In this document: piece by piece, positions 39,545-55,870 of the stretch
How positions within the stretch are numbered: the first letter of the stretch is position 1
Layout: each line of letters opens with the position of its first letter
NCBI GenBank assembly: GCA_964187785.1
Contig: OZ076410.1
Location: 45,818,001-45,882,000, forward strand
DNA: 64,000 bases
Source: Amphiscolops sp. MND2022
Taxonomy: Eukaryota
Reading direction: 5' to 3'
The notes under the pieces: model-generated
The model's input: the letters and a program-made list of their open reading frames with translations, nothing else
The model's database searches: none
What the model was told of the DNA's origin: nothing
Position numbers and translations under genes: made by a program

Positions 39545-40369
39545 TCACGAATCTGACGGATTTTTTCTTTTCCGAGACGCCAATTCAAACTGTTGAGCAA
39601 GCGTTTTTGCAGTCTCTAAGTCTTCCATTGTTAGCAAGGGCTCTCCCGACGAGTCAACCAGGTCAGGAAATAATTCAGCAAACGTGCAAGTTTTGCATTG
39701 CATTTTCTAAGTAAAAGTAAAAAGCTTTACAAACATTAGTGAATTGAATACTCACAGAGGACAAAAGTCAGTTACCATCACTTGTTCCTCTAAATCTGAG
39801 GTTGTAGCTTTTGAAACTTTGTCTTCGAGCAGTTCCACTTTTTTCAGCAATTCAAGCTCCTCCTTGTTCAAATTATCAGTGTTCTAAAGCAAAATTAACC
39901 TTGTTCATGTCAGAGACCCTTACAGCAAGAAAAAGCGAAGATTACCTTTAAACTTTGGTCAAGATAGCTACTTGAGGATGGCTTGTTGTTACCATCAGCT
40001 TTATCATCCTCAAAGTACCATGCGACTTTGTTTTTATCATCCTCTATGAACAATTTCTCCAAGAGGTTCCTTTCTGATTCGTCAACTTGGTATTCCGCAG
40101 CATCGTCCGGAAACAACACTTTATTTTGTTTGTTACTCTTAGCGGCAGTATTTGTTTGACTAACTGTGCTGTCTTCACCAAGAGGAGTGTCTGAAACATC
40201 ATTGATACAAACTCGCAATTGGACTATGTTTCACCTCTGGTTGGATTATGTTTAAATGTTTACCTAAACCAATAATTGCTTGTCTCGTCCTCTTCTTCTC
40301 TTTGCGAAAAACAGTAGGAGGAACAGTTGTATTTTTTCGAGTCGGTGGTGTCCATTCATTGTTAGCCAT
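39545..40369 (-). CDS. Four-exon orphan protein (206 aa), acidic/coiled-coil with basic NLS-like motifs
   Basis: Exons 40369-40264, 40190-39946, 39883-39776, 39706-39545. Three GT-AG introns (73, 62, 69 nt) join the frames into 621 nt without stops. Confidence 0.75.
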
Positions 40370-40463
40370 TTCTGAAAAAGTGATGAGCTTTCGTCGAAAC
40401 TGAAAGAAAAAAAAAACAAATATATTCAAACAAGTTTTATAGAGAAAAAACTTCAGAGTTACG

Positions 40464-43400
40464 TTATACATTTATTGGGGATGTTGTAACACCATCAGCA
40501 TGCACAAATCGTTTGTAATAAAAATATGTTATAGACATTTTGTTTTGTTTATATGTGAACATGTTTCCTCGGTAGTAGCGAAATCCTTTGTTGGATCCTT
40601 CGTAGGGCACTTTGTTGAACAAGACAGATTTAAATCTTTCCAAAGGCGACTCTAGATTTTTGTTGCTTCCCTTGAGAGCCATTTTCATCTTTTTGTTGTT
40701 TTCGTTAAATGCGCAGTAGGTTTTGCTGTTGAGACAAATCATTTCCGTTCCTTTCCATTCAATTTTGAAAAGTCCAGGTGTTCTTTTATCCATTGCACCG
40801 TGTTCTTTGCAGCAGCTTCGTGTTAGAAAATTCAGTTGAGCATTTGGTAGATAGCAATCTTCTTGTTCATGATAATGCTTTGCATTTTCTTGCATTTGTG
40901 ATTTCGCAACCTCATTGAAACATTCGTATAGATCGTTTTCTGTCAAAGCCATGTAGAAAGAGTCGGTGTCCATCTCTATAGCCCGAAAAGTTCTTGGTCT
41001 CATAATTCTGCCGAGAAAGTCGTAACGAAACTCCAACATTCTTTGTTTTCCATTGTTTAGTACTGTAAAACCAACGAGAATGGGTTCATCGTGCACAATT
41101 TTTCTTTTAGCCATGTTAATTTCGTATATTTTTTCATCCACAATGTCATAGGTCCGGAATTTTGGAGAATTGATTTTTTGATCAACTTTTCTTTCATCAA
41201 CAAAAAGCGTGTTTTGAAATTTTGATTTATTTATGAGTTGGATGCCATATGCGCTGTTTCCAATAAGTTTGGATGTTTCTGCAATCACACTGAGCGACTT
41301 GTCTACATCTCCTCGACGCCTGTTTTCTGTTACAAAATCCAAAAAATCTTTGAATGGTTGTGCTTTTTTGTAACAAAGAAACTGGTAGCATTTTGTAACA
41401 ACCAAACCATGTTCCAAACACCACTTGATGTAGTCGGTAGATAACATTATCTTTTCTCCAAAGTAGCTGGCGACAAGACACTTCCAACCGTTTTTCATCA
41501 AACCGAACTCTTTGGCATAATCTTGCATTTCCGCGGAAAGATGTTGCCTCTCGACAGTTGTATTTTTGAAGATGGGTGGAAGTTCTTTAAAGTGTTCCTT
41601 CAAGTGATCTGGAACGTGGATGTCAATTTCAGCTAATCCATAAACTTTTTCTTTCCACACTGCATTGAGAAATGTCTCCAACGTTGAAAACTTTTCTGGT
41701 AGACAATCAAGATTTCTCACAAACTCTTTTATTTCGGGGTCTGTTTCTTTAAGCTGATTCCATTGACACTCCCATTGCTCAATCACACGATATCCTGCAT
41801 TTAGAATAACTTCCGTACGCTCCTTGTCATTTTCACGTATTTTTGCCGGTGTTTTTCCATGAATTAGAGGCGGCTGAAACATTTAGCAGTTTGAAGCACT
41901 TCCAAAAAAAAGTATGATTCATTGTTTCAAAATTTAAATTTTGTCAACTAACCAAACTTATACAGTCATGAGCGTGATGATAACATCCCATAAATTCCCA
42001 AACAGTTTTACAGGTCACACAGACAGCATCGGGAACGAGTGTTCTAACTTGGTGGCGCATATTTGTGAAACGAGTGGTCACTGAACAACTTGGATTTTGG
42101 TTGTGATGATGTTTGGAGATAAAAGCAACATACTGTCGTTCGGCTTGTAAAAATTTACTTTTTTCGGAAACTAGAGCGTTGTCGCTGTTGCACACGTAAT
42201 GAGTCAAAGGTCCAGTTGGCATGTTTCCACCAATAGCAGATAAATACAAAGCGTTGGCATCATAACCAACTATTGACTTGACTTTTTCATCATTGATGAC
42301 AGTTTCATTAACTTTTTCGTAACGACTAAACACTATACTTGGCCCTCCAACAATGTTGTTTCGAACACTTTGATACAAATCCTTGTCTTTATAATTGAAC
42401 AAGAAAATTCCTTCGCCTTTGTTTGATCGATGTAAAATTTTGTTGGCGGCACCGCTGAGTGTTAGAGTTTCCTTCAGCAAGTCAATCGAGTGTTGTTCAT
42501 AGAAACGGGCCATTTTGGTCACAGCCTTGTGAAGGGGATAAACATCAAGGTTATTGTAATATTGTAAATAATCCATCATTGTTTGAAACCCTTCGTGGTC
42601 CCATGTTTGTTTAATGTCCTCATATACTTCCAACCCTGTCTTGGGTCTATTTGGATCAGTGAGGCTGCCTCCGTTTTGAACAAAACTGTTAATCTCGTTC
42701 TCCAAAACGTTTTCATTCTTCAGTGAGGAAAAGAATGCTTCGTAGGGTGGTAATGAAGTTTCTTGTAAAATTTCAAAACTGGTGAGATGTTCGTAAGGAA
42801 AGAAAAACTTGCTGACTTCACTACCATAGGCTTTCAAAAACTTGTCTAATGATGTACCAGCTGCAACAAAATGACTACAGTCCATGAAGCGCAGGTTTGG
42901 TGTTGAAAGGAGTAGGAAGCGAGTATTTCGTTTAATACACTTGATGGATGACAAGCTAACGAAACGCTGCAGCGACTTTAAAAGATATGGCTTTATCAAG
43001 TTCAAATCGTAGAATCCACTATTGAAACCAACAACTGGTAGCTGGTCAATGTATTGTAAGAACTGTGTTCGTGTTCTTTTCAGGAATCTGTGCAATCTCT
43101 GCTGTGTGCTGGATACAGTAGTAGTAGCGGTAGTGGTTTCGTTTAGAGCAGCTCCTTCATCATCTGAGTGTGTGTTCTCTCCCATGGTGGTGTCATCTGG
43201 TTCAAATTCTAATAACATTTCATCAATTTGTTCTAGATAGGGTAAAAATTTTTGTCGCTGGTGAGAGATATTTTTGAGGGACAAGTCCATTAAATAGTCT
43301 ACAAACTTGTCTACCAAACAGTTAGGGTCTTTTTCCACTAACCACTTTGCAGCCGATTCGTCTGTTGTAATGTTTTGATATATTGCAACCGATACGGGAA

Positions 43401-54622: not shown

Positions 54623-55327
54623 TTAGCTATTAGTTGTTTTTGGAGACGCCAATTGAAGAACATCGAGCAAAGTTCGTTCCAAAAACTGCTCAGTGTAGTG
54701 AAATTGGTCAGTCATGTCGACGCCCCTGGTACGCATCTTGTGCACGTTCAAAGATTTGCACTTTTCGAGCTGTTTCTGCAAAACTTTATCGACCCTTTTC
54801 TTGTTCGAATTGGGAAGAAGTTGATTACGTCTCGCCAGACCAATCACTAGTTTGACACCTTTAGTTCTGCAAACTCTGTTCCAGAGCATTAGTTTTTCCG
54901 TAAGGTCTTTAGGTGACAGTGTTGAAACACTATTGTTCCCTTAAACACATTGTTTCCCAACCAACAATCTTTTTTTAATCGCAAAAAACTCAATTTTGTT
55001 GCTACGGGGCAACAGGGTTAGGGTTAGGGTTAGGGTTAGGTTTGAAAAAAAAACAAAAGAGTACAACTAACTTGGTGGCATTGTGAGCGAATTGTAGAGA
55101 ATGTCGGGAAAGATAAACACGAACTGACACTCTGGTCGAGAAAGGGCTCGAAACAACAAGGAGTCAAGTGTAGGTTTTGAAAAGTTTCGTTTAGAAGAGG
55201 AGGAGGAGGAGTATTCATGTCGACCGCCACTTTCGGCGAGAATTTGGATATGTTTATAATGAGATGAATCCTTAATGATTCTAGAAAGATTTGAAGCACC
55301 AATAACAATCGCGTGCTTTTTTTCCAT
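54623..55327 (-). CDS. Spliced SGNH/GDSL-like hydrolase (~190 aa)
   Basis: Exon 55327-55072 (VIGASN, ESGG, PDILYNSL) plus exon 54939-54623 (TDQFHY = DxxH); GTTAGT donor at 55071; acceptor choice ambiguous. Confidence 0.6.
55014..55042 (+). repeat. Telomere-type repeat (TTAGGG) x ~4.5
   Basis: AGGGTTAGGGTTAGGGTTAGGGTTAGGTT inside the predicted intron. Confidence 0.9.
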
Positions 55328-55439
55328 AAAACCTGAAAACAGATGATGTGTTATTTCAGAGTCAGAGCAGAATAGTTTCGTTGACGAAACAAAAAGTGTG
55401 AGCACAGATAAATACAAAAAAAACATGCAAACAATGAAT

Positions 55440-55870
55440 TTATAAATTATATTTAAGGCAATAAACTTGATAAGAGTTTTTTGTTAAGTTTTTGAGAGCC
55501 TGGAGGATACCCGCATCGAGTGTACCCTTCCTCCAGGCTCCCAAGCACGCAACAACCAGCCCGTGCTGGTGTTTACGTATCTGCCAAAAGGCAAACACAT
55601 CCAGCACGGGCTGGGTGCGGGTCCCCTCAATGTACGCTTGGATCTCCTGCAGCAGAAAAATTGTGAACGGTTATTTTTGAGATAAAATTTCAACGATTTA
55701 AAAAAACTCAGAAAAACAGAGAAAAAAAAACAAACCTCGTCTCCGCAAATCATCCGGAGTGTGTCATATGTCTCGCTGGAGACGTCGAGAAGACAAGAGG
55801 CCCTGGACCTCTTGTTCTCGACGCCCCAGGCAAAGTGGTCCATACTATCTAGCTCCTTCCAACTGAGCAT
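55440..55870 (-). CDS. Two-exon orphan protein (113 aa)
   Basis: Exon 55870-55736, intron 55735-55647 (GTTTGT..TTTTTCTGCTGCAG, phase 0), exon 55646-55440; joins MICGDE to EIQAYIEGTRT. Confidence 0.6.

Follow-up and report, generated by a model that had tools for sequence, protein, structure and literature searches.

The window analysed here, a stretch of 64,000 nucleotides (nt) from Amphiscolops sp. MND2022 (contig OZ076410.1, positions 45,818,001 to 45,882,000; coordinates below count from its first letter), contains a complete 18.2-kb Polinton, bounded by terminal inverted repeats (TIRs) of 63 nt and a 6-bp target-site duplication (TSD). We consider it highly likely that this element belongs to a recently mobile Polinton family in which the DNA polymerase gene (polB) and three accessory genes carry ordinary introns of the U2 type, gained before the family expanded. 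The initial annotation of this DNA had described six GT-AG segments of 62–132 nt in four genes, and all six were found, each starting with GT and ending with AG on the minus strand. Their removal was said to restore continuous frames. Translated exon by exon with an X at the breaks, the models of polB, of a gene in the left arm and of a gene for a protein of 113 amino acids (aa) are free of internal stops.

The Intron in polB

The polymerase gene lies on the minus strand. Exon 1 (41953–44949; 999 aa) encodes zinc fingers, the exonuclease motifs and the Pol A motif, and exon 2 (40464–41873) encodes Pol B and Pol C; the 79-nt intron between them (41874–41952, phase 0) falls inside a nuclease-like insert, which we take to be Vsr-like. 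With its Exo and Pol motifs located, the product is a protein-primed family B polymerase (pPolB). Neither piece gave a direct polymerase match in Pfam; 1130 relatives were found, and PF03175 is present on many of the 120 full-length ones listed, which are 35–44% identical.

Together the two pieces amount to 1468 aa, and over their whole length they align with the uninterrupted polB frames of further Polinton families of this genome (n = 11; the eight longest measure 1444–1494 aa). Both motifs that flank the break are present in 83 of the 120 listed outside relatives, spaced 40–53 aa apart; in the window the spacing is 45 aa when the segment is removed vs. 71 aa when it is kept. A spliced aligner supplied with no coordinates chose exactly 41952/41874 with 63 of these 83 relatives and with three of three families from the same genome.

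A GT..AG segment is present at this place in 30 of 30 polB loci, the window's own included. It is 78 nt long in 16 loci and 79 nt in 14, and contains one to three in-frame stops in each. Eight of nine older copies have also kept it (75–82 nt; donor intact in six, acceptor in eight), and in one older copy, of 76% local identity, the interior of the intron is rewritten. Both flanks are under purifying selection, with dN/dS values of 0.19 for exon 1 and 0.13 for exon 2. Among 20 sibling copies taken at full length, seven have both polB exons open and 13 have stops or frameshifts inside them. The initial annotation had named siblings with a continuous open reading frame (ORF) through the segment as the finding that would overturn it; in none of the copies examined, one search having left 914 of 1064 candidates unscored, were the polB exons joined without the segment. 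The polB intron is almost certainly real.

Since Pol A is encoded ahead of the break, with Pol B and Pol C behind it, an unspliced message would be unable to yield a polymerase. The warning that ORF-only annotation breaks such genes is borne out by a public protein collection, in which this polB is stored as two separate entries, a piece of 1001 aa in a cluster with 214 members and one of 472 aa in a cluster with 178. When metagenomes were scanned for relatives of polB, 89 pattern matches came up and none was confirmed.

At the end of polB an AATAAA (40472–40477, minus strand) overlaps the last codons, about 100 nt before the ATG of the left-arm gene, an operon-like spacing. A fusion of polB with the left-arm gene through an in-frame GT at the end of polB was considered and rejected: polB ends where its relatives naturally end, and in three copies the fused frame is also broken by a 4-nt deletion after the acceptor.

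Probable Introns in Three Accessory Genes

The first of the accessory genes, here called SGNH-like, consists of exon 1 (55072–55327, minus strand; ATG at 55327), a 132-nt intron of phase 1 (54940–55071) whose end is the first in-frame AG counted from 55071, and exon 2 (54623–54939; p = 0.0016), in which another ATG is present. A search without profiles through 1.84 billion proteins yielded 14 relatives. One of them, P0134, is a single chain that spans both exons, matching exon 1 with residues 28–78 and exon 2 with residues 87–176, and it selected exactly 55071/54940 at three penalty settings. Five relatives (P0122, P0123, P0126, P0149 and P0151) terminate one residue past a shared motif, and six more diverged ones run on at this point with S/T-K/E-L/M followed by a Phe/Leu-rich stretch, which we infer to be translated GTAAG or GTGAG donors and the T-rich intron behind them. 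Neither of the diverged relatives P0126 and P0128 is encoded here; what matches them best in this genome is the present Polinton family. Among the copies the intron varies from 118 to 149 nt. We hold it to be real with high confidence. A telomere-type (CCCTAA)n run lies inside it (55013–55040), and its length differs among copies in steps of 6 nt.

The SGNH label is a lead, drawn from a structure model. Pfam gave no match to the gene. The model of P0134 is of low confidence (pLDDT 50) and has mostly SGNH enzymes as its top matches, the best of which (Z 7.0, rmsd 3.8, 135 residues aligned) stays below a reliable level; Foldseek found no match to it at E ≤ 0.001, and the leads from the Atlas were weak, with a GDSL cluster at 0.85 and nothing usable after it.

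The 113-aa gene has two exons (55736–55870 and 55440–55646, minus strand), both with a synonymous excess (p = 2e-5 and 3e-5, respectively), separated by an 89-nt intron of phase 0 (55647–55735). The intron stands at the identical codon boundary in 10 of 12 copies, in which it measures 71–89 nt and its donor hexamer occurs in three versions; the remaining two copies have kept the acceptor and are damaged near the donor. Among proteins of 37–119 aa no homologue of exon 2 was found. In this gene, too, we regard the intron as real with little hesitation. The gene (55440–55870) occurs in several allele types, about 60–100% identical, within elements that are otherwise 94–99% identical, which suggests recombination or fast evolution; tandem fragments of it were seen at 3.81–3.82 Mb of contig C2 and on contig C1444 of the same assembly (G000).

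The left-arm gene, with a predicted product of about 206 aa, has four exons on the minus strand: exon 1 (40264–40369, ATG at 40369), exon 2 (39946–40190), exon 3 (39776–39883) and exon 4 (39545–39706). Intron 1 (40191–40263, 73 nt) has GT-AG ends in 30 of 30 loci and in 20 of 20 copies, two overlapping sets, and its interior is strongly altered in three copies. Intron 2 (39884–39945, 62 nt) has them in all 18 copies covered, at lengths of 61–66 nt, and intron 3 (39707–39775, 69 nt) has GT in 19 of 19 and AG in 18 of 19, at 67–70 nt. Exons 2 and 4 show a synonymous excess (p = 0.014 and p = 0.048), the predicted frame of exon 3 has the lowest dN/dS of the three possible frames (p = 0.074 by itself), and exons 2–4 combined are under selection in their predicted frames (p = 8e-4). 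From the conserved ends, the internal length changes and the selection on exons 2–4 we judge introns 1 and 2 likely to be real, and for intron 3 we lean toward the same view. Pfam gave no significant match to the accessory pieces. In the left-arm cluster, two members of 466 aa were considered as spliced products and rejected, since these proteins are unrelated and nothing in the window matches them.

Properties Common to the Six Introns

As the initial annotation had anticipated, GT and AG are kept among siblings while the interiors drift: pooled over the 20 copies, 199 of 201 splice dinucleotides have stayed intact, as compared with 6364 of 7492 interior ones (85%). Indels of a length other than a multiple of three amount to 81 per kb in introns and 11.5 per kb in exons of the same copies, and shared substitutions to 0.18 per nt and 0.11 per nt, so that the predicted faster divergence of the introns holds by both measures; the alleles of the 113-aa gene do not clearly show it. 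For each of the 10 exons the lowest dN/dS falls in the frame of the splice model.

Ranked with a host splice matrix, itself built from 59 automatic, unvalidated intron calls in myosin genes, the six donors lie in the top 0.1–11.6% and the acceptors in the top 0.3–8%. Two of the six introns have GTTAG as donor, which is among the two commonest donors of the host in this 59-call sample. At the DNA level, then, the segments are fixed and non-coding, have host-like splice sites and are situated where relatives are colinear without them; colinearity with uninterrupted homologues after removal was found for polB and the SGNH-like gene. These are features of U2-type introns. The segments are merely 62–132 nt long, unlike group I or group II introns, an Rfam scan of 38700–57000 gave no match, and by their sequence the six are not self-splicing. 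The myosins of the host are of animal type; their best named database matches were 43–48% identical and came mostly from arthropods and molluscs. One host myosin gene (L119:1069–5118) has an uninterrupted frame of 1350 codons, and its paralogues have many introns.

The Element and Its Family

The left TIR (38760–38822, plus strand) begins with AGTAGT and is 98% complementary to the right one (56883–56945, minus strand), and both have the AG..CT ends of Polintons. The 6-bp TSDs at 38754–38759 and 56946–56951 are the same 6-mer, making a perfect duplication. A 901-nt query against the organism's own genome (assembly of 1.07 Gb), in which 40 matches among 125 candidates were scored, gave a family of at least 40 copies of 94–100% identity. 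Six of the eight copies that have both ends possess a perfect 6-bp TSD, and each TSD is different. Because these TSDs are perfect and differ from one another, and one of them flanks a copy that is 99.3–99.4% identical to the window, the sequences identify this as a family that has been inserting recently. In several copies (L036, L038, L040, L042, L044, L054, L060 and L069) the segment 38822–38959 of the window is matched twice, which suggests a short tandem duplication adjoining the left TIR.

Alternative Explanations

One objection is that the segments arose by decay, as insertions or as frameshifts of copies already dead, and that the GT-AG ends fit by chance. Such fits are easily had: when 2000 frameshifts were simulated, a bridging GT-AG pair existed for 1879 of them, which means that the reconstruction by hand on which the initial annotation relied is by itself weak evidence. 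With the site quality of the weakest intron required at both ends, only 30 of the 2000 were bridged, at thresholds that were chosen after the fact. Decay is also common, since 13 of the 20 siblings have damaged polB exons, and 96% of vertebrate Maverick loci are described as degraded (PMC8097293). Against decay, every one of the 30 loci and eight of nine older copies carry the polB segment, none of the copies examined has the exons joined without it, both flanks are under purifying selection, and near-identical copies stand at different TSDs; the introns were evidently fixed and inherited, and we regard decay as an extremely improbable account. Alternatively, polB could be a natural two-subunit gene with a second start, or be read by readthrough or frameshifting, and the other genes be separate small ORFs. 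An in-frame ATG at 41882, 9 nt before exon 2, is present in 17 of the 30 loci and is the one that ORF callers use, and exon 2 of the SGNH-like gene and exon 4 of the left-arm gene each have an ATG. In the other loci the codon at 41882 is GTG (12) or AAT (1), and a separate start of the second half is therefore unlikely; 14 of the 16 versions of 78 nt contain three in-frame stops, the break falls within a domain that runs uninterrupted in the aligned relatives, and in P0134 the two SGNH-like halves form a single chain. This arrangement is very unlikely, and about equally so is the proposal that the introns are introner transposons that arrived after integration. Introners are reported in dinoflagellate Polinton-like elements (PMC11957031), but the six introns are mutually unrelated (one of 15 pairs reached p = 0.04, the others were not significant), the polB intron is older than the family expansion, and when this intron, the only one searched, was used as query, 40 of 40 scored matches were at polB loci (114 candidates, 74 unscored). 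An introner origin that is old and has since been erased is conceivable.

A further alternative concerns what splicing does rather than whether it occurs: polB would be gated by its cis-spliced intron, whose retention could control the polymerase, and unpaired acceptors would serve to release the downstream genes from polycistronic minus-strand transcripts, either with a shared leader or through spliced-leader trans-splicing of the host. Acceptor-like sites at 40400, 40372, 53807 and 55333 on the minus strand stand 2–30 nt before three ATGs and are conserved, with no clear donor. The AG at 40400–40401, 30 nt before the left-arm ATG, ranks in the top 0.5% of AGs and is intact in 18 of 20 copies, and a second one ending at 40372 likewise has no conserved donor nearby; the one ending at 53807 ranks in the top 0.3%, is intact in 12 of 13 copies and precedes an accessory ORF (53143–53781, minus strand); the one ending at 55333 precedes the SGNH-like ATG at 55327. 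Very strong conserved acceptors at 5–30 nt from the ATG precede three of 16 starts vs. 1.3% of 5712 non-coding windows, the left-arm ATG follows the polB stop by about 95 nt, with the AATAAA overlapping the end of polB and nearby donors unconserved, and in two other families the polB ATG is preceded, at 29 nt, by an acceptor. Untranslated regions that are rich in T score high under a T-rich matrix, however, the best upstream donors (45401 and 45584) are conserved because they lie antisense to a coding frame, and nothing points to regulated retention. We consider such a programme possible but improbable. If it existed, replication would be tied to the splicing state of the host, unlike in the intronless Polinton families of the same genome. 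The data do not show the adenovirus-like expression programme that the initial annotation had envisaged, and ordinary constitutive introns are sufficient to explain them.

Several points weigh against the interpretation as inherited, constitutively spliced introns. Splicing is deduced here from DNA sequence alone, and the copies share ancestry, so that counts over them are not independent, the 30-locus and 20-copy sets moreover overlapping. The aligner permits only GT-AG introns and penalises an intron less than a frameshift, and 20 of the 83 relatives led it to another choice in polB. Equally strong splice sites are numerous elsewhere in the element, also in antisense, and the introns are short when compared with those of the host sample, which have a median of 413 nt and include only four below 100 nt. 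In five diverged alleles of the 113-aa gene the identity of the intron (0.54–0.70) is not clearly below that of the exons (0.58–0.71). The left-arm gene has no detected homologue, which leaves its three introns without a homologue test, and intron 3, with a varying donor context and an ATG in the following exon, is the weakest of the six.

A Proposed Course of Events

We propose that the lineage gained the introns before the family expanded in this host, and that transcription of the element is nuclear, with the spliceosome of the host removing them constitutively. The element thus very probably needs the splicing machinery of the host. Its self-replication would depend on splicing of polB, because the unspliced gene stops after Pol A, without Pol B and Pol C. 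Polintons are copied from DNA to DNA without a step of reverse transcription, and this mode of copying may be the reason why the introns persist. That packaging limits the length of the genome and thereby keeps the introns short is a speculation.

Comparison with Other Elements

The element is real, and it is an intron-bearing variant of a known one; intron-bearing cargo genes and introner insertions have already been published. Sibling copies and the intronless families of its genome serve as good controls for it. With other animal Polintons or Mavericks it shares a length of about 18 kb, TIRs, a 6-bp TSD, pPolB, RVE integrase, packaging ATPase and major capsid protein, and a polB that is divergent from the structural module. 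The intact core genes of vertebrate Mavericks are described as intronless (PMC8097293), as are those of nematode Mavericks, in which introns occur in cargo genes only (bioRxiv 10.1101/2022.07.12.499685); this agrees with the premise of the initial annotation that core genes are usually annotated as plain ORFs. Here, in contrast, a fixed GT-AG intron splits pPolB in a family that was still moving. Like the nematode cargo genes wasp and krma, the three accessory genes bear introns and stand near the ends of the element; unlike in nematodes, a core replication gene has one too.

Intron-type sequences inside Polinton-like elements are also known from dinoflagellates, where introners form repeated transposon families, mostly acquired after integration, whereas the six introns here are unrelated to one another and inherited throughout the family (PMC11957031). 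Group I introns have been reported in Polinton-like viruses (PLVs) (PMC12220804), and prokaryotic gene callers have been used with the argument that introns are absent from endogenous viruses (PMC10120064). For Polinton core genes, no report of a spliceosomal intron was found in the literature searched, outside of which lay most subscription papers, Repbase entries and supplements. Surveys that score only intronless ORFs as intact (PMC8097293) would call a family with spliced polB degraded or fragmentary.

Adenoviruses have a related type of polymerase and nuclear expression that uses host splicing, and their splicing is an alternative, leader-based programme; the element described here shows no such programme.

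Other Polinton families of the same genome (L071–L081 and L091–L108) share TIRs and core genes of about 31–55% identity; they differ in having polB as a single open frame and no detectable homologue of the three spliced accessory genes. The presence of intron-bearing and intronless Polinton families in one genome is a built-in comparison for intron gain in a DNA virus lineage.

Core Genes without Introns and Further Frames

The integrase, the A32-type ATPase and the double-jelly-roll capsid protein characteristic of Polintons are all encoded on the plus strand, each by one ORF: the packaging ATPase at 47282–48016 (PF04665, E = 1.2e-10), the RVE integrase at 48843–49895 (PF00665, E = 5.8e-12) and the major capsid protein (MCP) at 50438–51736. 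The capsid assignment comes from a structure model (pLDDT 55) that matched an iridovirus capsid in Foldseek with E = 2e-12 and the faustovirus MCP with Z 17.4 (rmsd 6.5, 347 residues aligned). An ORF at 51729–52154 (plus strand), which we take to be a cysteine protease, is 36–38% identical to the ORF following the capsid gene in other families and had no significant database match; an ORF at 52187–53086 (minus strand), presumably a minor capsid protein, is 33–34% identical to ORFs of other families and likewise had no significant database match. PHROGs gave no significant match to the core pieces. Spliced alignment of these five genes against three families revealed no consistent intron (two stray calls in 15 alignments), in agreement with the initial annotation, which had called capsid, ATPase, protease and integrase intronless; the minor capsid gene can be added.

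Two further frames are apparently under purifying selection, judged by their substitutions. An open frame of 204 codons (44951–45565, plus strand) is divergent from polB, a few bases from its ATG, and has a synonymous excess (p = 1e-4). A small acidic ORF of about 70 aa (39230–39442, plus strand) has eight synonymous and five non-synonymous shared variants (p = 7e-4, many frames having been tested). In L071, L073 and L075, which have an intronless polB and two of which are closely related, an acceptor-like AG stands 29 nt before the polB ATG.

Host repeats are present on both sides of the element (37424–37728 and 57172–57475). Elsewhere the window contains large, diverged tandem duplications (22000–35000) and a decayed long-terminal-repeat retrotransposon with a direct repeat of 169 nt (3100–8900).

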